Positions 1,902 to 48,522 of a DNA stretch of 64,000 nt are shown one piece after another; positions within the stretch are counted from its first letter, which is position 1; each line of letters begins with the position of its first letter. The notes below the pieces were generated by a model. That model saw only the letters and a list, made by a program, of their open reading frames with translations. It had not been told where the DNA came from and made no database searches. Made by a program: the position numbers and the translations under genes. Origin of the DNA: a bacterium (GTDB lineage Bacteria > Patescibacteriota > Minisyncoccia > UBA6257 > JAGOQP01); the NCBI GenBank assembly GCA_021814695.1, contig JAKAHY010000006.1:49-64048 (forward strand). Direction: 5' to 3'.

Positions 1902-2249
1902 ATGCATACATTCACAGAATTATTAAAAAATATTAGGGAAGAAGGAGAGCTAACACAAGAAGAATTGGCGCGTGCAATAGGCGTTTCCACAATCTTAATA
2001 TCCATGGTTGAGAGTGGCCAAAAAGATGTGTCGAAAAATCTTGTAGTAAGGCTTGCGAAAGGACTCGACGTTCATCCCAGCTCAATCGCTCCCTTTGCAT
2101 TCATCGATAAGAGCTCCGAATTGAAAAAGACCACTGGCATAGAAAAAACGCTGGTGTCTTTGGGTGAAAGATTACAAGATCATTTAATCATGATCAAGTC
2201 AAAGAGATTAAAAAAATATGTTTCGCGCCCAGAGATATCCGCGAATTAA
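1902..2249 (+). CDS. HTH XRE-family transcriptional regulator
   Basis: LTQEELARAIGVSTILISMVESGQKDVS helix-turn-helix; overlaps the downstream RT gene by 32 nt (operon). Confidence 0.7.
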   Translation: MHTFTELLKNIREEGELTQEELARAIGVSTILISMVESGQKDVSKNLVVRLAKGLDVHPSSIAPFAFIDKSSELKKTTGIEKTLVSLGERLQDHLIMIKSKRLKKYVSRPEISAN

Positions 2250-3189
2250 TATAAGGAGCAAGAATGAATTAGGGAAGCGCATTTCACCGAACAAACTACA
2301 ATTTCCTAAAACTCTCCAACTCATCAATGATGCATTGTCTAATTTTGATAAACAGTGGTACGACAGTGAACGCTCTGAGCCAGAGAAGGGAAAGTTTGTG
2401 CGAAGCGCTGTGGGAACTTCTCTTGGAAAATTACTTAAGCTTATAGACAGAAAGATTCTTGCTCCATACGATAGCTTAATACCGGATTTTATCTTTGGTG
2501 GTTTGTCTGGAAAAAGTCATATTCAGGCTGGCAGTTATTTATTGGGAAATAGACGCGAGAGAACATTGCTACGCCTAGATGTCTTTAGATTCTTTGAACA
2601 GATCCGGGAGCAAAGAGTTTTCAATTTCTTTTATGCGAAGTGCGGATGTAGTCAAAAAGCTGCTCGATTGATTTCTGGCCTTTGTTGCGTACCTTTGGGC
2701 CAAAAAGGATCTGGGTGTACTCAAAAAAGTTTGGCTCGTGGTTTTGCTACGTCGCCACGTCTCTCTATATGGTGCAACTTGGATATATTTTTAAGGTTGA
2801 GTTGGATGGTAAAGAAACAACTTCGTAACCATGATCCCAAAATTGCTGTTTATATTGATGATATCGGCATTACAGCTAGCCGGGTAAAAAAAGAACAAAT
2901 TGAAAAAGTGGCGCTACTCGCAGTGAAGATACTCACTGATTTTGATAGCAACCAATCACTCCCGATCAATCCTGAGAAAAAGGAAATTCTATCTGGTGCT
3001 GGCAAGATGAAACATCTCGGACTGAAATTGGGTAGAAATAAACTATCTATTGGAAATAAGGCGTTTTCTAAACTATTAGAAGTTAGACGTAAGTTAAAAA
3101 GCTCAGTATCGAAACGAGAGAGGTCGCGGCTAGTAAAGAAATACAAATCATACAAGAAATATAAACACCAGGTTATGAGGGCCAAATAG
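2218..3189 (+). CDS. Small (323 aa) retron/Abi-like reverse transcriptase with basic C-terminal tail
   Basis: RT motifs FGGLSGKS (1), LRLDVFRFFEQI (A), VFNFF...LISGLC (retron-like spacer, cf. Ec86 VFNLF...LTELC), ATSPRLSIWCNLDI (B), VYIDDIGI (C, YxDD), HLGLKLG (E); no maturase or endonuclease domain. Confidence 0.75.
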   Translation: MFRAQRYPRINIRSKNELGKRISPNKLQFPKTLQLINDALSNFDKQWYDSERSEPEKGKFVRSAVGTSLGKLLKLIDRKILAPYDSLIPDFIFGGLSGKSHIQAGSYLLGNRRERTLLRLDVFRFFEQIREQRVFNFFYAKCGCSQKAARLISGLCCVPLGQKGSGCTQKSLARGFATSPRLSIWCNLDIFLRLSWMVKKQLRNHDPKIAVYIDDIGITASRVKKEQIEKVALLAVKILTDFDSNQSLPINPEKKEILSGAGKMKHLGLKLGRNKLSIGNKAFSKLLEVRRKLKSSVSKRERSRLVKKYKSYKKYKHQVMRAK

Positions 3190-3246
3190 CCAATACTTCA
3201 TCACTACATATTATAATATTAATAAAAATAATTAGGATTATTGCTT

Positions 3247-4158
3247 ATGGCAAATAGTCATGATGCGAAATGGAAAAAGTTTGAGAAGGTTGTATATGAT
3301 ATACAAAAAGAATTAGCTCCTGATTCTGAAGTTAAGCTAGATGACGCTATCACAGGAGAAGACTCTAAGGTATCTCGCCAAATTGATATCAGCATCCGCC
3401 GCAATATAGGACAATACTCAATTCTGATTGTTATCGATTGTAAGGACTATGGTGTGCCGATCGACGTAAAAGATCTTGGTGAATTTGCTACTCTAGTCAA
3501 AGACGTAAGAGCTCACAAGGGCGCAATGATTTCTAGCAAGGGTTTTACGCCAGCCGCAGTAAGCTTGGCAAAAGCTCGTGGCATTGACACATTCACATTG
3601 ATAGATACTGAAAGCGTTGATTGGAAGGCATATGCCACAATTCCTGTATTATTGAGGAGTACTAATCTAAAAAGTTTTAGAGTAATATACAAAAACTTCC
3701 AAATTCTTCCTAGGGAGATTGTAGTCGCCGACCACAAGAAGCTGAAATTATATTCTCAGCAGCAAAAATTTATAGGCACCATTGGACGCTTAGTGCTTGA
3801 TAAATGGAATAATAAAGAAATAGAACATGCGTCTGGAGAGCACGAGGTTTTATTATCGGAAAATATTATGTTGGAAATAAATAGTCAGAAGTTTGGGCCG
3901 TTAGATGTAGCTGCTGTTGTATTGGTAGAGGAACACACTTATTTTAGCGATCTCCCGGTACACCTGAAAGGTTTTCATGATGCGCAAAAAGGTGGTGTAA
4001 TTACTAAATCGTTCGAAACGGACAAAATTTGGCCGGCAAAGATAGAGCAGGGATTAGTAGAGGGTTGGAGAGAGCTTAAGAATCCTACCGAACTATCGAT
4101 ACAACCACTTTTAGAATTCTATGTGTATGATTCCTATCCTAAAGAGGAGGTGGAGTAA
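3247..4158 (+). CDS. Mrr-like (restriction endonuclease, PD-(D/E)xK) N-terminal domain protein with unknown C-terminal domain; putative effector of the RT system
   Basis: ILIVIDCKDYGVPIDVKDLGEFATLVKDVRAHKGAMISSKGFTPAAVSLAKARGIDTFTLID matches the Mrr_cat pattern (QCK...V...F.G....KG.F.T.S.FT..A...A...I.LIDG). Confidence 0.65.
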   Translation: MANSHDAKWKKFEKVVYDIQKELAPDSEVKLDDAITGEDSKVSRQIDISIRRNIGQYSILIVIDCKDYGVPIDVKDLGEFATLVKDVRAHKGAMISSKGFTPAAVSLAKARGIDTFTLIDTESVDWKAYATIPVLLRSTNLKSFRVIYKNFQILPREIVVADHKKLKLYSQQQKFIGTIGRLVLDKWNNKEIEHASGEHEVLLSENIMLEINSQKFGPLDVAAVVLVEEHTYFSDLPVHLKGFHDAQKGGVITKSFETDKIWPAKIEQGLVEGWRELKNPTELSIQPLLEFYVYDSYPKEEVE

Positions 4159-7983: not shown

Positions 7984-9504
7984 ATGTCTTCTAATAAAGC
8001 CCAAAACGCGGGGCAGGCTCCGCTTAATAACCCGACTCAAAAACCGCTATCTGTCGGAGGCAATACCGGCGCCCTTAAGGCGCGCCCGCCGATTGTGGTG
8101 GTAATGGGCCACGTTGACCATGGCAAAACCACTCTCTTGGATTACATTCGAAAAACGAAAGTAGCCGAACGTGAGGCGGGCGGAATCACCCAATCTATCG
8201 GTGCTTATGAAATAGAAAAAAATGGGCAGAAGATGACATTTATAGATACGCCCGGACACGAAGCGTTTACAAAAATGCGTCAGAGAGGAGCCCATGTTGC
8301 CGATATCGGGATTTTAGTTATCGGCGCCGATGATGGAGTTAAGCCGCAAACCGAAGAAGCGATAGCAATTTTGCAGAATTCGAACACTCCTTTTGCGGTC
8401 GCAATAAATAAAATAGACAAAAACAACGCCGATATTGAGAGAACAAAAAATGACCTGCTTAAACACGGCGTTCTTTTGGAGGGATTTGGAGGAAACATTT
8501 CATGGTGCGCGATATCGGCAAAGCAGGGAGAAGGCGTGGATGAGCTTTTGGATTTGGTTTTGTTAATGTGGCAGGTTGAAAATCTTACTTACAATCCATC
8601 CGTCCCGGCCAAGGGATTTATTATAGAAGCCAAAGTAGACAGCAGGAGAGGGGCCGCCGTTTCGGTAGTCGTTACCGACGGCATTATTCGTGAAGGTAAT
8701 GATATTGCGACGCCGACAGCCTGCGGAAAAATAAAAATGCTTGAAAATTTTTTGGGAAAAAGAGTTACGGAACTTGCTCCTTCCAGCCCGGCTCTTATTT
8801 TAGGATTTGAAAGCCTACCTTCCGTGGGGCAATCTTTCACTGCCGGAGATCTTGAACTTGAAATTGCTCCTAATTTGGCCCCGGGATTGAAACCGAAAAT
8901 GAATCTTAGCGAAACCGAAAAAGAAACCATGATGCCGGTTATGATTAAAGCAGACGTTTCCGGTTCTTTGGAAGCATTGGCGCATGTTATCGGAGCTTTA
9001 GAGATTGACGGGAAAAAATTCAAAATTGTTTCCGAGGAGGTCGGAGAAATTACCGATGGCGACATAAAAGATGCCAGCGCTACGGGGTCTATTGTTGTAG
9101 GATTCAATACAAAAATCATCAAATCGGCTGATAACTTAGCCAGAGGCCAGAATGTCAGAGTTGTAACTTCAAATATCATTTATAGAATTGTAGAGGCTCT
9201 CGAGGAGTCTATTAGAGCCATTGAGGGGGGTGAAAAGGGACCGACAATGGAAGTGCTTGCGATATTCAGCCAGAAAGGAAAAAAACAACTCGTCGGAGGG
9301 AAAATATTATCCGGAATATTTACGCTAAACCAAAAGGTTAATATATTAAGACAGGACAAAGCCGTCGGTGCCGGAAGAATAACCAGTTTGCAGCAGGGAA
9401 AGGCGGTTGTTAAAAAAGTTTCCGAAGGAGAATTCGGGCTTATGGTTGAATCTTCGGTCGTTGTCCAGGTGGGAGATGTGCTTGAAATAGAATATACCAA
9501 ATAA
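7984..9504 (+). CDS. infB: Translation initiation factor IF-2 (short form)
   Basis: GHVDHGKTTLLD, DTPGHEAF, NKIDK GTPase motifs and conserved C-terminal domains. Confidence 0.92.
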   Translation: MSSNKAQNAGQAPLNNPTQKPLSVGGNTGALKARPPIVVVMGHVDHGKTTLLDYIRKTKVAEREAGGITQSIGAYEIEKNGQKMTFIDTPGHEAFTKMRQRGAHVADIGILVIGADDGVKPQTEEAIAILQNSNTPFAVAINKIDKNNADIERTKNDLLKHGVLLEGFGGNISWCAISAKQGEGVDELLDLVLLMWQVENLTYNPSVPAKGFIIEAKVDSRRGAAVSVVVTDGIIREGNDIATPTACGKIKMLENFLGKRVTELAPSSPALILGFESLPSVGQSFTAGDLELEIAPNLAPGLKPKMNLSETEKETMMPVMIKADVSGSLEALAHVIGALEIDGKKFKIVSEEVGEITDGDIKDASATGSIVVGFNTKIIKSADNLARGQNVRVVTSNIIYRIVEALEESIRAIEGGEKGPTMEVLAIFSQKGKKQLVGGKILSGIFTLNQKVNILRQDKAVGAGRITSLQQGKAVVKKVSEGEFGLMVESSVVVQVGDVLEIEYTK

Positions 9505-42042: not shown

Positions 42043-42738
42043 ATGGGGAAAGAAAGACCGGTTGCATCCGATCAGTTGGCGGAATTGGATAAAGTAATAA
42101 AAAAGGTTAAAAGGGAAACTAAGGCTTCCGAAAAAGCGAAAGCCGAAAGAGGTGGCAAACTCAAGACCGAGTCTGTTGCCGAAAAGAAATCGGAAAAAGG
42201 TGCCGATAATAAATTGGGGAGCGAACAAGCAAATAAGGAATTCAAAAATAAACCCAAAGATAAAGAAATCTCAAGCGAGGAAATAAAAAAATCAGAAAAT
42301 GTCAGCCCGGAGATGGAAAAAGACATGAATGATTTGGTCATCGGTGAACAGGAATTGGCTCAACTTAAAAAGGAGTTGGAAGATATAGTCTCCATAAATC
42401 CTGAAGAGATGATGTTTAAAGGGCTTTCGACCGAGAGGGACCGCAGGAATTTGCATGAAAGTATGTCCAAAAAAGCAAGAAAGAGTTTTGATAAAAAAGC
42501 AAAGGAGGTTGAAAAACTTAAAGAGAGAATCAACGCCAGAAAAGAACTTGATGAAAAAAAGGGAAAACTTGAAGAGTATAAAACCGGACTTGAGAGTGCC
42601 AGCATGAGCGCTAAGCCAATGGAGTCCGCTTACTACGAAGACCTTATAGAAAGTACCGGAAGAGACATAAAAAATCTTAATAAAAAAGTAAAAGGGGGTT
42701 TTTGGAAAAAGTTTTATAGCTTTATCAGCGGTAAATAG
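42043..42738 (+). CDS. K/E-rich coiled-coil protein
   Basis: Low-complexity charged heptads. Confidence 0.4.
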   Translation: MGKERPVASDQLAELDKVIKKVKRETKASEKAKAERGGKLKTESVAEKKSEKGADNKLGSEQANKEFKNKPKDKEISSEEIKKSENVSPEMEKDMNDLVIGEQELAQLKKELEDIVSINPEEMMFKGLSTERDRRNLHESMSKKARKSFDKKAKEVEKLKERINARKELDEKKGKLEEYKTGLESASMSAKPMESAYYEDLIESTGRDIKNLNKKVKGGFWKKFYSFISGK

Positions 42739-42742
42739 AGAT

Positions 42743-43039
42743 TTAATCGAAAATCGGCCGGAGTCTTTGACCCCGCACCTTTTCACTGCTTAGGCTGCGC
42801 CTGGTTATTATTTTCAGTTTAGAATAAACACGGCCATAAGATTTTAGATTTCTTTCCCTATCAATAACATCACCTTGTGAGACATAACCTTCTAGATAAA
42901 TAATTAACCATTTATCGCTTATTTTGGCATACATAGGCTTACCGCTGACATATCCTAATATTCCTCTCGAAACATCGTTTGTATAACCAATATGCAACTT
43001 GTCATAGATTTCATTTTTGAGAACATAAACATAATACAT
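42743..43039 (-). CDS. Small GIY-YIG nuclease (copy 1); the ORF reads through the downstream repeat
   Basis: MYYVYVLKNEIYDKLHIGYTNDVSRG...YLEGY GIY-YIG motif. Confidence 0.7.
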   Translation of the reverse strand: MYYVYVLKNEIYDKLHIGYTNDVSRGILGYVSGKPMYAKISDKWLIIYLEGYVSQGDVIDRERNLKSYGRVYSKLKIITRRSLSSEKVRGQRLRPIFD

Positions 43040-43074
43040 ACATAAATAACAAAGCAGTGGAAAGGTGCGGGATT
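42771..43074. mobile_element. GIY-YIG gene bracketed by inverted repeats ccccgcacctttt (42771-42783) and aaaggtgcgggatt (43061-43074)
   Basis: Repeat family read directly; the same repeat pair brackets the second GIY-YIG gene. Confidence 0.5.
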
Positions 43075-43111
43075 GACACAACCACCACTTTTCTAGTAGT
43101 ATCTTTCCATT

Positions 43112-43438
43112 ATGATAGTTAAAGAAATTGCCGAAAAAATAAAACCGGGGGCTTCAATAATAGTGGTTGAGCGCATTAAGGAAAAAGAAAAGGAGCGCCA
43201 GAGCCAATTTAAGGGAGTCGTGCTTTCGGTTAAGCATGGTAGACAGGGCGGGGCCACTTTTACGGTCAGGGCCATTTTGGGAGGAGTTGGGGTGGAAAAA
43301 ATATACCCATTTAATTCACCTAGTATTACTTCGGTTAAGGTTCTCTCAAGCCCCACAAAAGTAAAAAAATCAAAACTATATTTCTTGCGCAATGTGTCCA
43401 AGAAAAAATCTCGCCAGAAAATCGGAGTAACGGCGTAA
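43112..43438 (+). CDS. rplS: 50S ribosomal protein L19
   Basis: FKGVVLSVKHGRQGGATFTVR...GVGVEKIYPFNSP...KLYFLR. Confidence 0.85.
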   Translation: MIVKEIAEKIKPGASIIVVERIKEKEKERQSQFKGVVLSVKHGRQGGATFTVRAILGGVGVEKIYPFNSPSITSVKVLSSPTKVKKSKLYFLRNVSKKKSRQKIGVTA

Positions 43439-43495
43439 GACGCGGATTTATACGCCTGCCTGCCGGCAGGCAGGGATTAAACGGATTTATGCGAA

Positions 43496-43526
43496 TAAAA
43501 AAAGAGGGCACTGCCCTCTTTTTCAT
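43496..43526. terminator. Bidirectional terminator aaaaaaagagggcactgccctctttttcat
   Basis: Stem gagggca/tgccctc flanked by A and T runs. Confidence 0.55.
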
Positions 43527-43530
43527 TTTG

Positions 43531-43616
43531 TGCGCGGGAGAGGACTCGAACCTCCACGGGACGTAATGCCCGCTACCACCTCAAGGTAGTGCGTCTACCA
43601 GTTTCGCCACCCGCGC
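43531..43616 (-). tRNA. tRNA-Leu(GAG)
   Basis: Reverse complement gives acceptor gcgcggg/cccgcgc, anticodon loop ttGAGgt, long variable arm, T-loop ttcgagt. Confidence 0.8.
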
Positions 43617-43905
43617 ATTATTAACCAAATCTTGAGATATTTTGCCTTAATGGCGGCAAATAATCAATAGGAAAGTGATAAAAACGTCAGATTTTAGTAG
43701 CTTGACAGAATTATTATAGTATGCTAATATATGACCATAATCGGAGTGGAGGAGGAATTGTCCAAGTCCACAATCCGATCAGCACATTGACCGAGAGATC
43801 GTCAGCCGGCGAAAGTTGGCAAGCGATTTCTCACTATCACGTCCCGATTGGAGTCGGGACAGCCCTCCTACGTGCGGGAGCACTACGGAGGACAAGGGAG
43901 ACAAC

Positions 43906-44649
43906 ATGGCCAAGAAAGCGACCAAGCAGAACCCCGCAGTCAACCTGAAGGTGTACGTGAAGCTCGACCCCGAGGCGCAGGTGATGTTCAACCACCAGCG
44001 TCGCGACCAGGCCGTCAGCTTCCCCGCCGTGGTGGCGACCGTCGCGACCATGATCAAGGGCGGCAGCGACATCACCGGCGCGCAGGAGGACGACAAGTAC
44101 GTCGTCACCCTGGACGCCGGACAGCTCGCCGAGGTGTTCGCCGAGGCGCGCGAGTACCAGGCGACGCTCCCGGCCACCGTGGAGATCGCCAAGCAGGCGA
44201 TCTCGACCGCCGATCAGGCGATCGAGTTCGCTCGCAAGAACAACAGCGGGCTCGACCTGTCGCAGGCCGAGGCCAAGCTGAGCACGGCGCAGGCCATGCT
44301 CAAGAGGCTGGTGTTCGGCAAGAAGAGCGACGACTTCCGCGAGGTGGTGGAGACGGCGCACGATGCCGCCAACACCGCCAAGCAGGCCGTCGTCGACCTG
44401 CTCAAGGTCAAGGCCGCCGGCCTCGCCAAGGAGACCGACACGCTCGACGAGTTGTCGCTCGTCCTCTCCGACCTCCCCAGCGACCTCGACCAGGCCCGCA
44501 AGGCCTTGGTCGAGTTCGTCAAGACGGCTCGTACGCTCCGCGTCCCGGCCCGCCCGGCCAACACCAACAAGCCGAACGATGGCCACCTGCGCGAGCGCGT
44601 CGGAACCGGCGTGTTCGGCCGCACCGGCGGCTACACCGGCCGCAAGTAG
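43906..44649 (+). CDS. Hypothetical protein, ~65% GC (foreign), good GGAGGA RBS
   Basis: Strong GC3 codon bias in a 40% GC genome; all six frames are open, the other five taken as artefacts. Confidence 0.55.
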   Translation: MAKKATKQNPAVNLKVYVKLDPEAQVMFNHQRRDQAVSFPAVVATVATMIKGGSDITGAQEDDKYVVTLDAGQLAEVFAEAREYQATLPATVEIAKQAISTADQAIEFARKNNSGLDLSQAEAKLSTAQAMLKRLVFGKKSDDFREVVETAHDAANTAKQAVVDLLKVKAAGLAKETDTLDELSLVLSDLPSDLDQARKALVEFVKTARTLRVPARPANTNKPNDGHLRERVGTGVFGRTGGYTGRK

Positions 44650-44694
44650 GCCCTCTCACCCCTGACGAATCTTTCGTCAGGAACTCCAACAACC

Positions 44695-44742
44695 CGAACC
44701 TCAGGCAATCCCGCCTGAGGTTCTTACTTTTTTCCTGGGAGC
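44695..44742 (+). terminator. Rho-independent terminator gaacctcaggcaatcccgcctgaggttcttactttttt
   Basis: 11-bp stem plus T-tract. Confidence 0.6.
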
Positions 44743-44758
44743 ATAGCTCCAATCGCTG

Positions 44759-44775
44759 AAAGGTGCGGGATTTTT
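44759..44775 (+). repeat. Orphan copy of the AAAGGTGCGGGATTTTT repeat
   Basis: Identical to the right-hand repeats at 43061, 45807 and 47431. Confidence 0.6.
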
Positions 44776-44808
44776 ATTAAATACGGATTTATACGGATAC
44801 GAGAGTAT

Positions 44809-44837
44809 TTGACACAACAATGATTTTGGTATATTAT
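44809..44837 (+). promoter_or_regulatory. Sigma70-like promoter TTGACA-17-TATTAT
   Basis: ttgacacaacaatgattttggtatattat, preceded by direct repeat atacggatttatacggatac. Confidence 0.5.
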
Positions 44838-44857
44838 ATAGACAGTATATTCAAATA

Positions 44858-44921
44858 GTAGGAATGAGCTGACTAACCATATGAATCCGTGTTGCAATGT
44901 GAATAGTCAGCTCGTTCCTAC
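44858..44921 (+). promoter_or_regulatory. 18-bp-stem hairpin in the 5'UTR just upstream of the RBS of ORF 44948
   Basis: gtaggaatgagctgacta...tagtcagctcgttcctac. Confidence 0.5.
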
Positions 44922-44947
44922 AAAGAGCAGAAAGAAAGGAGAATGCG

Positions 44948-45718
44948 ATGTACGACGATAGGAGAGAGGTTAAAGACCCGATGTTCCAGTTTTTTCTGGA
45001 ACAGCAGCGCCACCAGGGTGCCGGATTTGGAATTATGTCCGAGATTTGCACCCTTTCCCGGGAACATCACCAGGCGGTTCTCAAACAGGACTGGCCGGGA
45101 GCTGATGAGCTCGAGGACAAGATGCGGGCCAAGTGGATGGCTTTGACCCAGAAGAACATCATGGGCCGGACCCACATCAAGATTGCCGAAATGTCGGCAA
45201 CCGAGATGCTGGAAGCGTTTTTTGTCCGGGAGGTGTTCTGGGAGATTGCTACAAATCGGACATCGAGTTTCAATCCTTCAGATTTCAAGAAGTACGCGGA
45301 GACATGGTCGGAAGCGTTCCAACTTCCGAAAGATTCTCCCATCGATTACCAGTGGATTATCGCCGGCTGGTTGGACGCCGCCAGTGAGATCTACAAGATG
45401 TTGGTGATTCTGATCAACAGCAGGTATTACTCGGATGGAGATAAATTGTCCATCTGGGAGAGCTACTGCGCGCTCCTCTCTGCTGTTCATGAGGCTTTTG
45501 CTCTCTACGAGCTGATCGCCTCCAGCGTCATCGACAACGGGCAGGGACGTGTGCCCTGGCCAATGACGTTTCGCGGCAAGATGCAAAAGCTCCAAAACCA
45601 CATTACCGAAACTCACGAAAGGATTCAGTATTATCGTGAGCGGACCGCGGACAGGGTGGATCGCGAGGTCCTCATGTCCAAGATCGAAGCCGTGATTGGT
45701 CTCCTTTCCCGCAAGTAA
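44948..45718 (+). CDS. Hypothetical protein (~52% GC)
   Basis: ORF with AAAGGAG RBS and downstream terminator ccgggttgcgaaagcaaccca-T7 at 45726-45750. Confidence 0.55.
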   Translation: MYDDRREVKDPMFQFFLEQQRHQGAGFGIMSEICTLSREHHQAVLKQDWPGADELEDKMRAKWMALTQKNIMGRTHIKIAEMSATEMLEAFFVREVFWEIATNRTSSFNPSDFKKYAETWSEAFQLPKDSPIDYQWIIAGWLDAASEIYKMLVILINSRYYSDGDKLSIWESYCALLSAVHEAFALYELIASSVIDNGQGRVPWPMTFRGKMQKLQNHITETHERIQYYRERTADRVDREVLMSKIEAVIGLLSRK

Positions 45719-45752
45719 GCGGGGCCGGGTTGCGAAAGCAACCCATTTTTTT

Positions 45753-45819
45753 ATCCCGCACCTTTAATTTTCAATTAAAACAGGACGAGTAAAACTCGAG
45801 CAAACTAAAGGTGCGGGAT
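45753..45819. mobile_element. Empty inverted-repeat pair atcccgcaccttt...(41 bp)...aaaggtgcgggat (miniature, gene-less element)
   Basis: Same repeats that bracket the GIY-YIG genes, here with a 41-bp spacer. Confidence 0.45.
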
Positions 45820-45860
45820 AATCCTCCGAAGCTTTATGCAAAGGAGGATTCATAGACCGT

Positions 45861-47060
45861 TTGCCTTTAGGTGATATTTTTCATAGAATAAAACTTACCT
45901 ACACCAGCTTTATGAAAAGAGAACACATTGTCGCCAAAGATCCGGACAGCGAAAAACTCCTTTCCGAACTCAAACAAAGGGAAGACACTAACGGGCTAAG
46001 AATGCGTCGGTTGATTGAACTTCCGGATTTATCCAGAAAAGAAAATTCTCCCATAAAATTTATAGTAGACAGGATTTTGGGGATCAAAGATTTTGAAAAT
46101 TTTGATATATTGGAATTTCCCGAAATTGTCAGTGTGCGGGACAATTTTGACTTGCTTAACGCTCCGGCCGACCACCCCAGCCGAAAAGAAACCGATACTT
46201 ATTATGTGGACAAAGACCATGTTTTAAGAACTCAAACGACCGTAATGTGGCCGTATTATCTCCAGCGGCCGGACACTTTGGATAAACTGAATAACGAAGG
46301 AGAGGTCGGCTTATTGAGCTATGGCAAGGTCTATAGAAAGGACGAAATAGACAGGAATCATTTTCCGATATTTCATCAGGTGGACGGACTTTATATTTGT
46401 AAAAAAGAGAAAAAGATTTTGGGAATTCCCGAATTGCAGGAAGTGCTTTCGGCTATTACTAAAGCTATCTACGGAGAATCGGTTGAATATAGATTTTTGG
46501 AAGACACATTTCCTTTCACGGATCCAAGCACTCAGATTGAAATTAAGGTGGGCGATGCATGGCTTGAAGTTGTCGGTGCCGGAGTTGTTCATACTCAAGT
46601 TTTAAAAAATTTGAATATTGACCCGGAAATTTACAACGGGTGGGCATTCGGTTTCGGGTTGGAACGCCTGGCAATGGTGAAAAACGGAATTTCCGATATC
46701 AGAGTTTTCTGGTCCGATGACCCAAGAATTACGAGCCAGTTTAAGGATATAAACAGTCAATATAAAGAAGTCAGCAAATTTCCGATGACTTACCGTGATA
46801 TTTCATTTGTTGTCAATAAAAATATAAGCCTCAACAATTATTACGAGATTGTCAGGGACTGTGCGGGCAACCTGGTTGAGGAAGTAAAGCTTTCGGACCA
46901 GTATGAAGACGTCATAAAATTCGGCGCGGATAAAATCAGTTATACATTCAGGATTGTTTATCGCTCTCCCGAAAGGACATTAACCAATGAAGAAGTTAAT
47001 CAGATTCAGGACAGGATTATTCAAAAAACAGCCCAGGAGTTGAATGCGACAATAAGGTAA
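45861..47060 (+). CDS. Monomeric (mitochondrial-type) phenylalanyl-tRNA synthetase: PheS catalytic core plus C-terminal FDX-ACB anticodon-binding domain
   Basis: Class II motifs (FPFTDPSTQIEI, WLEVVGAGVVHTQVL, GFGLERLAMVKNGISDIR) and C-terminal FPMTYRDISFVV...YTFRIVYRSPERTLTNEEVN resembling the PheT/mito-PheRS C-terminus. Confidence 0.75.
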   Translation: MPLGDIFHRIKLTYTSFMKREHIVAKDPDSEKLLSELKQREDTNGLRMRRLIELPDLSRKENSPIKFIVDRILGIKDFENFDILEFPEIVSVRDNFDLLNAPADHPSRKETDTYYVDKDHVLRTQTTVMWPYYLQRPDTLDKLNNEGEVGLLSYGKVYRKDEIDRNHFPIFHQVDGLYICKKEKKILGIPELQEVLSAITKAIYGESVEYRFLEDTFPFTDPSTQIEIKVGDAWLEVVGAGVVHTQVLKNLNIDPEIYNGWAFGFGLERLAMVKNGISDIRVFWSDDPRITSQFKDINSQYKEVSKFPMTYRDISFVVNKNISLNNYYEIVRDCAGNLVEEVKLSDQYEDVIKFGADKISYTFRIVYRSPERTLTNEEVNQIQDRIIQKTAQELNATIR

Positions 47061-47062
47061 AA

Positions 47063-47136
47063 TACCCGCACCTTTTTAATAGTGGGTCAATCATCAAAAT
47101 TGAAACAATAAGACATCCCACAAGTGCGGGATTTTT
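47063..47136. mobile_element. Second empty inverted-repeat pair tacccgcaccttttt...aagtgcgggattttt
   Basis: Read directly. Confidence 0.4.
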
Positions 47137-47407
47137 GTCCCGCACCTTTCAGCCACTGAAGGCTACGCCAGATCCTTCTTTTTAGATTTGAATAGGTTTT
47201 TCCATACGCCTTAAGTTGCTGCTCTCTATAGGAAGCATCGTATCGTGAGGTGTAGCCTTCAAAATAAACTAGAGACCATACATTGCTTCTTTTGGTGTAT
47301 ATCGATTTACCGCTATTATGTTCCGAAATTCTTTTAACTAAGTTATTTGTGTATCCTATATATACTTTGTTATCCAACTTATTTTTTAGAATATAAACAT
47401 AATACAT
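47087..47407 (-). CDS. Small GIY-YIG nuclease (copy 2, ~45% identical to copy 1)
   Basis: MYYVYILKNKLDNKVYIGYTNNLVKRISEHN...YFEGY. Confidence 0.7.
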   Translation of the reverse strand: MYYVYILKNKLDNKVYIGYTNNLVKRISEHNSGKSIYTKRSNVWSLVYFEGYTSRYDASYREQQLKAYGKTYSNLKRRIWRSLQWLKGAGQKSRTCGMSYCFNFDD

Positions 47408-47447
47408 ATTATTATAATAACACGTAGCCGAAAGGTGCGGGATTTTT
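47138..47447. mobile_element. GIY-YIG gene 2 bracketed by tcccgcaccttt (47138-47149) and aaaggtgcgggattttt (47431-47447)
   Basis: Same architecture as the 42771-43074 element. Confidence 0.5.
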
Positions 47448-47499
47448 GTTTATTAGCCAATTTGCTATTATGGGTAGTAAGTAATTAATATAAAATTAT

Positions 47500-48522
47500 A
47501 TGAAAGTAGCCATAAATGGTTTTGGTAGAATAGGCCGGTTGTTTTTTAGGCAGGCTTGGGGCAATCCGGATTTGGAGATTGTCGCCATTAACGATTTGGG
47601 AAATGTTGATGACCTTGCTTATTTGTTGAAACGAGACACCGTCTACAGGACTTGGGATGTTGATGTTAAAGGCGACGCCTCAAAAGGCGCTCTGATTGTC
47701 GGAGGCAAGGAGATAAAATTTTTACAGCAAAAAGATGCCACCCAACTTCCTTGGGGCACTCTTGGTATCGATGTTGTTATAGAGTCAACTGGAGTTTTCG
47801 AATCATACGAAAAAGCCAAAGTGCATCTGGATGCGGGCGCAAAAAGAGTTGTAATAACAGCACCGGCTAAAGATGCGGATGGTGAGCTAGGCCAGACAAT
47901 TTTGGTTGGAGTTAACGAAGAAAAACTGGGCGTCTGCAAAATTTCATCAAACGGTTCCTGCACAACCAATTCGGCATCGCCGGTTATTGCCGTGCTGTCG
48001 GAAAATCCCGGAATTGAAAAAGCGATTTTAACCACGGTTCACTCTTATACAGCGACACAATCCTTGGTTGATGGTCCGGTAAAAGGAGAAGATTTCAGAA
48101 GGGGCAGGGCCGCGGCTCAAAACATAGTGCCTTCGACTACCGGTGCGGCCATAGCCGTTTCAAGAGCTTTGCCTGAGCTTGTAGATAAATTTGACGGCAT
48201 AGCGGTAAGAGTTCCTTCGGTAACCGGTTCGACTTCGGATATAACATTTATATCAAAGCGTCCGACAACTGTAGAAGAAATAAATTCAATTTTGAAAGCA
48301 GCTGCCGCTTTACCCCGTTGGCAAGGGATACTTACGGTCAGTGAAGAGCCATTGGTTTCATCCGATATTATCGGCATGCCTTACGGGGCTATTGTTGATA
48401 TGAAGTTTACCAAAGTTGTCGGCGGCAATCTGGTTAAAGTCCTTTCCTGGTACGACAATGAATGGGGATATGTCTCAACTCTCATAAAACATCTTAAAAA
48501 AGTTAAAGACGTAATAAAATAA
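47500..48522 (+). CDS. gap: Glyceraldehyde-3-phosphate dehydrogenase
   Basis: INGFGRIGR, active-site SCTTN. Confidence 0.9.
   Translation: MKVAINGFGRIGRLFFRQAWGNPDLEIVAINDLGNVDDLAYLLKRDTVYRTWDVDVKGDASKGALIVGGKEIKFLQQKDATQLPWGTLGIDVVIESTGVFESYEKAKVHLDAGAKRVVITAPAKDADGELGQTILVGVNEEKLGVCKISSNGSCTTNSASPVIAVLSENPGIEKAILTTVHSYTATQSLVDGPVKGEDFRRGRAAAQNIVPSTTGAAIAVSRALPELVDKFDGIAVRVPSVTGSTSDITFISKRPTTVEEINSILKAAAALPRWQGILTVSEEPLVSSDIIGMPYGAIVDMKFTKVVGGNLVKVLSWYDNEWGYVSTLIKHLKKVKDVIK

Follow-up and report, generated by a model that had tools for sequence, protein, structure and literature searches.

What kind of phenylalanyl-tRNA synthetase (PheRS) does a patescibacterial chromosome encode, and does the gene belong to that chromosome or to the repeats that surround it? 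Both questions are raised by an open reading frame (ORF) of 399 aa at 45861–47060 (forward strand) of a 64-kb stretch of contig JAKAHY010000006.1 (assembly GCA_021814695.1), hereafter the window, to which all coordinates refer unless another locus is named. Catalogues of aminoacyl-tRNA synthetases describe bacterial PheRS as an (αβ)2 heterotetramer and the single-chain form as organellar (PMC3275996, PMC11580382, PMC10810186), with PheRS-M defined as mitochondrial-like (PMC11580382, PMC10810186). An initial annotation read the ORF as a monomeric, mitochondrial-type PheRS embedded between mobile repeats, a sign of acquisition or mobility, and as a possible replacement of or supplement to canonical PheST. 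Our analysis favors a different history for the same enzyme: it appears to be a vertically inherited housekeeping gene for the single-chain PheRS of Parcubacteria, an enzyme without editing and probably their only PheRS, a reading to which we assign a probability of about 0.8.

Architecture, fold and active site

Pfam profiles resolve the ORF into two domains. A class II PheRS catalytic core (tRNA-synt_2d, PF01409; residues 61–294, 46041–46742, E = 1.4e-57) contains motifs 1–3 and the Phe-pocket signatures FPFT and GWAFG, and is followed on the same strand by an FDX-ACB (B8-type) anticodon-binding domain (PF03147; residues 305–399, 46773–47057, E = 3.5e-24). The C-terminal ends of E. coli PheT and of PheT chains deposited in the PDB align with the latter domain as well, corroborating its identification as FDX-ACB-like. 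No Pfam match to the PheS N-terminal coiled coil (PF02912), PF03483 or PF03484 was obtained in the protein, and core and FDX-ACB are likewise joined in one polypeptide in all 120 relatives listed. The single chain lacking the coiled coil that the initial annotation had described is thus borne out, and the peptides it quoted (FPMTYRDISFVV..., FRIVYRSPERTLTNEEV) are found in the ORF.

Comparison with known structures supports the same layout. The best sequence match in the PDB is human mitochondrial PheRS (1.7e-57); bacterial PheS chains align to the core alone and PheT chains to the last ~100 residues alone. E. coli PheS is 34–37% identical to the core (8e-47), and E. coli PheT (query residues 627–794) aligns only to the C-terminal third of the gene. 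With 36 relatives as input, AlphaFold2 gave a confident model (mean predicted local distance difference test score, pLDDT, 87.9; predicted template-modeling score, pTM, 0.86), which was compared with deposited structures using Foldseek. It superimposed on human mitochondrial PheRS (5mgv/3cmq) over 388 columns with a template-modeling (TM) score of 0.78 and a root-mean-square deviation of 3.1 Å (E = 1.8e-33), and on bacterial PheS α chains over the core only (TM ~0.53). Residues 1–60 are modeled as short helices, with no long PheS coiled coil.

Mapping onto E. coli PheS (R195, F248–T251, A294, R301) indicates that the residues lining the Phe and ATP pockets are retained: R142 of motif 2, F154-H155-Q156, F200-P-F202-T203 (E. 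coli F248–T251), A245 (E. coli A294, a known specificity determinant) and R252 of motif 3. These residues are invariant in the 36 relatives.

The organellar enzymes grouped as PheRS-M (human FARS2, PDB 3CMQ/3TUP; yeast MSF1; TIGR00469) have much in common with the window protein: a PheS-type core and FDX-ACB domain in a single chain, the lack of a coiled coil, β subunit and editing domain, superposition over the full length, and the motifs PADHPSR, YRxDxID..H.P.FHQ, FPFT.PS and GWAFGxGLERLAM. The window protein differs in being bacterial and chromosomal, in having neither a targeting peptide nor the insertion that the mitochondrial enzymes carry between motifs 2 and 3, and in carrying an N-terminal helical extension of its own of ~45 residues. 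The canonical (αβ)2 enzyme (TIGR00468 plus TIGR00472; E. coli, T. thermophilus) shares homology with it in the core (34% identity to E. coli PheS) and in the anticodon-binding domain, which lies at E. coli PheT residues ~690–795; in the window protein, by contrast, the two are fused, and there is no coiled coil, none of domains B1–B7, no tetramer interface and no adjacent pheT.

The 399-aa ORF with its TTG start at 45861 exists as originally reported; its start codon probably needs revision. Every database relative, as well as the gene call for this contig, starts at the position of M18, an ATG at 45912, which gives a probable coding sequence of 382 aa plus stop (45912–47060, forward strand). 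Residues 1–17 of the longer ORF (45861–45911) are probably untranslated, because relatives start at M18, sequence conservation sets in there, leaving the 17-codon extension unconserved, and a σ70-like promoter match (TTGCCT-17-TAGAAT, 45861–45889) overlaps the TTG.

From this architecture, the PheS-type class II core would activate phenylalanine and transfer it to tRNA-Phe, and the fused C-terminal FDX-ACB domain would recognize the GAA anticodon, the role it has in the mitochondrial enzyme. With no β subunit, the B3/B4 editing site would be missing as well. We infer that the window protein synthesizes Phe-tRNA-Phe and that it does so as a monomer.

Lineage, distribution and the place of PheST

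An exhaustive protein search over 1.84 billion representatives yielded 360 proteins at E = 1e-30 or better. In a neighbor-joining tree (300 bootstraps; a distance method only), all FDX-ACB-bearing single-chain proteins were separated from canonical PheS with 100% bootstrap support. The window protein fell in a clade of Parcubacteria, members of the candidate phyla radiation (CPR), supported at 95%, and not inside the mitochondrial clade; viral and mitochondrial sequences together formed another clade (86%), within which the mitochondrial ones alone reached 10% and were inseparable from the viral ones. The label "mitochondrial-type" given at first is therefore valid for the architecture only, since the protein belongs to a separate bacterial clade, even though its sequence and predicted fold are nearest to human mitochondrial PheRS. 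As judged from sequence, the window protein is mitochondrial-type by architecture, yet of a distinct bacterial lineage.

This lineage is broad. At least 562 species-level Parcubacteria/Paceibacteria genomes (one genome scanned per species) carry an orthologue at 50–80% identity. More than 100 relatives reach 70–82% identity, and all the named ones are CPR; of the best 80 genomes, those with proper names belong to Wolfe-, Staskawicz-, Nealson-, Moran-, Harrison-, Taylor-, Yanofsky- and Liptonbacteria and Paceibacterota. Carrier genomes measure ~0.5–0.7 Mb and include the closed AP024682.1 (562 kb), OZ246412.1 (626 kb) and JBBTWE010000001.1 (702 kb).

The window itself is a normal stretch of CPR chromosome, containing rpoB/rpoC, infB, topA, relA/spoT, a Mur ligase gene, dprA, rplS, gap, tsaD, ftsW and seven tRNA genes. 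Its gene order recurs in AP024682.1 as relA/spoT–topA–dprA–...–MazG–...–pseudouridine synthase–rplS–tRNA-Leu(gag)–PheRS–...–gap–...–rpiB–rpe–tkt. Across this shared segment PheRS is the most conserved gene (75% identity), ahead of gap (72%), RelA/SpoT (67%), L19 (65%), pseudouridine synthase (57%), TopA (52%) and DprA (41%). These findings suggest that the gene is ancient and has been vertically inherited within Parcubacteria/Paceibacteria.

The genes for canonical PheRS were sought in the window and in the neighborhoods of its homologues, each read for 10 kb on either side (~20 kb per locus; 83 loci, 1.24 Mb in total). Searches by tblastn with E. coli PheS and PheT found no second PheS-like gene and no PheT B3/B4, B5 or B6/7 region in the 64-kb window or the 83 loci, and the ancestral infC–rpmI–rplT–pheST cluster was present in none of the fetched DNA. 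With no pheT adjacent, the gene is not an ordinary PheS with misread boundaries. We infer that PheST is also absent from the rest of the genome, beyond the window and these neighborhoods.

One sublineage retains what looks like a piece of PheT. In six Moranbacteria-type loci (L066, L062, L035, L059, L024 and L028), a separate PheT-like ORF precedes the single-chain gene by ~20 nt; it encodes 141–142 aa that correspond to PheT residues 1–160 (B1 plus the B2 OB-fold tRNA-binding domain) and are 42–46% identical to E. coli PheT. The ORF occupies 9545–9970 in L066 and 9543–9971 in L062, downstream of tyrS in both. Its best 120 of 471 relatives, which come from Moranbacteria and Parcubacteria, are all standalone proteins of 108–210 aa with a tRNA_bind domain only; the lack of any full-length PheT among these 120 is suggestive, not decisive. 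This B1–B2 ORF may encode a tRNA-binding partner that acts in trans or be what is left of PheT, and its operon-like linkage to the single-chain gene supports a genuine PheRS role for the latter. The single-chain enzyme most likely stands in for (αβ)2 PheST in these reduced genomes, and the replacement is likely old and shared across the lineage, not recent.

Could the protein instead be an accessory PheS-like paralogue, related to SrmL or to a tRNA-dependent or non-ribosomal aminoacyl ligase, that works beside a canonical PheST encoded elsewhere? Several observations speak for such a role or weigh against the sole-PheRS reading. The highest NCBIfam score of the protein is to SrmL (NF051887, "PheS-related mystery ligase"; 268.6 bits, below the cutoff of 300), and SrmL, which has the same two-domain single-chain architecture, is the nearest sister of the CPR clade at 80% bootstrap. 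The mitochondrial profile pheS_mito (TIGR00469) is missed marginally, by 3 bits (255.2 against 258.35). The single change in the substrate pocket, common to the whole CPR clade, replaces the Glu of FHQxEG with Asp158; its E. coli counterpart, Glu210, contacts the amino group of Phe in classical PheRS. NCBI annotates the protein and its relatives as "hypothetical protein". Finally, the search for pheS and pheT covered the window and the ~20-kb neighborhoods rather than whole genomes, and a PheRS β subunit has been reported in some other CPR lineages (PMC5370408).

Set against these points, the features that define SrmL are lacking. A true SrmL, P0198, scores 415.3 bits against the SrmL profile. 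The two SrmL sequences inspected (P0198 and P0255) have a remodeled pocket, reading HPYT, PHQ/IHH and GLASG/GWALG, with changes at five positions (the equivalents of E. coli H149, F206, G211, F248 and F295), whereas the window protein is unchanged at all five (FPFT, FHQ, GWAFG) and its ATP motifs are intact. A more distant member of the same CPR clade, P0121, passes TIGR00469 at 264.3 bits. The gene sits among housekeeping genes, in contrast to the one SrmL context examined (that of P0255), which consists of large ORFs of unknown family and a reverse transcriptase gene. Its rank as the most conserved gene of its neighborhood, its class-wide presence in genomes of ~0.5–0.7 Mb, where a redundant 380-aa gene would be unlikely to persist, and the operon-like pairing with the B1–B2 fragment all point the same way. 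We therefore regard an accessory ligase as quite unlikely and retain the single-chain PheRS as the enzyme on which translation in these bacteria probably depends.

GIY-YIG elements around the gene

The repeats on both sides of PheRS, reported by the initial annotation as GIY-YIG-associated, are real. Their arm core, AAAGGTGCGGGA (allowing ≤1 mismatch), is present in 8 copies where 0.43 would be expected, none of them outside 42771–47442. The window has just two GIY-YIG ORFs, and each lies between inverted arms (~20 nt). Unit 1 (42743–43081, reverse strand; 98 aa from the ATG at 43039; PF01541, 2.2e-05) is inserted upstream of rplS, with arms at 42772–42791 and 43052–43071 (inverted repeat I4, 95%). 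Unit 2 (47138–47449, reverse strand) is inserted between PheRS and gap, with arms at 47138–47161 and 47427–47449; its ORF (47087–47407, 106 aa; PF01541, 1.5e-17) begins 27 nt past the PheRS stop codon. Both units are absent from the syntenic locus L003. Two further arm pairs enclose no gene: a hairpin upstream of PheRS and not part of the gene (45751–45821; TTATCCCGCACCTTTA ... TAAAGGTGCGGGATAA; inverted repeat I5, 95% complementary) and a second pair directly after the PheRS stop codon (47064–47131; ACCCGCACCTTT ... GTGCGGGAT). A solo arm lies at 44747–44770.

The tails of the two GIY-YIG ORFs run through the motif in different frames, which implies a function at the level of DNA or RNA. In layout, the elements resemble repetitive extragenic palindromic (REP) sequences flanking RAYT transposase genes, with a GIY-YIG nuclease here instead. 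Ordinary terminators were considered as an identity for the arms and rejected, because all eight copies of this 12-mer in the 64 kb are crowded into 4.7 kb; separate conventional terminators are found at 43499, 44696 and 45727.

On the strength of these repeats, the gene had been proposed to be acquired or mobile, and a recently arrived PheRS traveling with the GIY-YIG repeats could supplement that of the host. The immediate surroundings offer some ground for this: repeat arms come to within 100 nt of PheRS on either side, a GIY-YIG ORF follows almost at once, and non-conserved ORFs, one of high GC, lie just upstream. The details of the arrangement speak otherwise. Arm pairs enclose GIY-YIG ORFs or nothing, never the PheRS gene; the upstream GIY-YIG ORF is 2.8 kb away, beyond rplS, and the nearest upstream copy is the gene-less hairpin. 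None of the other PheRS neighborhoods fetched (80+) contains the arm motif, and GIY-YIG homologues occur within 10 kb of PheRS in only a few of them (GIY2-like in 6 of 83 loci, GIY1-like in 2 of 83). In the closed genome AP024682.1, PheRS holds the same chromosomal position with no GIY-YIG gene at the syntenic locus. The GC content of 46001–48000, which covers most of the PheRS gene, is 0.40, the same as the genome background; no CPR-type copy was found on IMG/VR viral contigs, and the viral forms are only 33–40% identical. Together with the occurrence in at least 562 genomes, these results contradict the inference of mobility, and we consider recent acquisition very improbable. PheRS as cargo of a GIY-YIG/inverted-repeat element is rejected on the same grounds: it lies outside the arm pairs, the arms are missing at other loci, and synteny is kept without the elements.

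Because synteny persists without GIY-YIG genes, the arms are private to this genome and PheRS is never enclosed, the GIY-YIG genes and arms are best read from the sequence as independent later insertions into the intergenic spaces around a resident PheRS gene, in this one genome. The locus accordingly gives no demonstration of a mobile aminoacyl-tRNA synthetase gene.

An ordinary bacterial PheS α subunit with misread boundaries and a nearby PheT, a reading that could appeal to the JGI label of the relatives ("phenylalanyl-tRNA synthetase alpha chain") and to the resemblance of the core to E. coli PheS, is refuted by the FDX-ACB domain, which is in frame here and in every relative, by the score to canonical pheS (TIGR00468; 180.5 bits, cutoff 237.45) and the missing PF02912, by the lack of pheT in the window and the 83 loci, and by a full-length fold match to mitochondrial PheRS.

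Significance, viral relatives and neighboring features

Searches of the full-text literature turned up no account of a single-chain PheRS from CPR or other bacteria, and the enzyme is apparently an undescribed bacterial member of a known enzyme kind. If the sole-PheRS reading is true, these bacteria would be a rare free-standing bacterial lineage that translates without PheRS editing, from which predictions follow on the misincorporation of Tyr and m-Tyr and on genome reduction in CPR. It would also explain why TIGR00468, TIGR00472 and TIGR00469 fail on these genomes and why NCBI records no function for the protein, and the missing pheT would depress estimates of genome completeness. The compact one-gene enzyme of ~380 aa would offer a PheRS scaffold for engineering, and bacterial and viral outgroups would become available for the debated origin of mitochondrial PheRS.

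The viral sequences form a group of their own within the single-chain family. Short proteins (~345–360 aa) of the same architecture, encoded on phage-like contigs of 160–340 kb, pass the mitochondrial-type (TIGR00469) cutoff, lack the CPR N-terminal extension and cluster with mitochondrial sequences; in IMG/VR, such relatives of the window protein are encoded at 14 viral loci, located on contigs of huge phages and giant viruses. The short genes lie at 8001–9065 in L086, 8001–9047 in L087 and in the IMG/VR loci L090–L103. Their carriers are huge-phage-like contigs of 160–430 kb (with PhageMetallopep, PcfJ and dNMP kinase) and metagenome-assembled genomes (MAGs) of giant viruses of up to 1.47 Mb. 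A tentative scenario, which we think improbable on present data, is that the Parcubacteria/Paceibacteria class dropped (αβ)2 PheRS together with editing, that the CPR, SrmL and viral forms represent a pool in which single-chain PheRS arose, and that the mitochondrial enzyme was captured from this pool, possibly via a phage-like intermediate. Capture through a phage-like intermediate has likewise been proposed for mitochondrial RNA polymerase.

In L088 (605–8741), the SrmL-clade sequence P0255 is followed by two ~740-aa ORFs of unknown family and a reverse transcriptase gene; from this context, the SrmL "mystery ligase" may be part of a defense-type or retroelement-associated cassette. A 414-aa protein from JAIBBV010000034.1 (L089, 10001–11245), in a MAG labeled Oligoflexia, is nested within the CPR single-chain PheRS clade, and its gene has an ordinary metabolic context; the gene could have been transferred horizontally from CPR, or the MAG could be wrongly binned or labeled. 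Several "binchicken" MAGs labeled Saccharibacteria, Gammaproteobacteria or Bdellovibrionales also contain CPR-type copies, and their labels look unreliable.

The conserved neighbors of PheRS in the window are rplS upstream (L19; 43112–43438, forward strand; PF01245; 65% identical to its L003 counterpart, in the same order) and gap downstream (47500–48522, forward strand; PF00044 and PF02800; 72% to L003, same order). Between rplS and PheRS lies tRNA-Leu(gag), part of the conserved backbone, at 43530–43616 on the reverse strand; it is kept in L003 (9514–9598) on the opposite strand, which points to a small local inversion or re-insertion beside the inserted ORFs. These are two ORFs (247 aa, high GC, and 256 aa) that together span 43905–45718 (forward strand) between tRNA-Leu and PheRS and lack counterparts in L002–L004. 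Neither (43905–44648 and 44948–45718) belongs to a Pfam, NCBIfam, PHROGs or PADLOC family, and ORF 42043–42738 has no Pfam, PHROGs or PADLOC family. All three, as well as both GIY-YIG ORFs and the downstream ferric-reductase and cytochrome b5 ORFs, are without counterpart at the AP024682.1 locus.

GC content reaches 0.549 over 44001–46000, compared with ~0.41 elsewhere. The segment 43800–44760, which adjoins tRNA-Leu(gag), combines high GC with long overlapping ORFs in several frames, and this stretch with its orphan ORFs may be the remnant of an integrated foreign element. Far upstream, at 2218–4158, an ORF for a reverse transcriptase (RVT_1; PADLOC RT_VI, retron type VI-like, 5.8e-28) stands directly before one with an Mrr-type restriction endonuclease domain, together a probable retron or defense module in this CPR genome.

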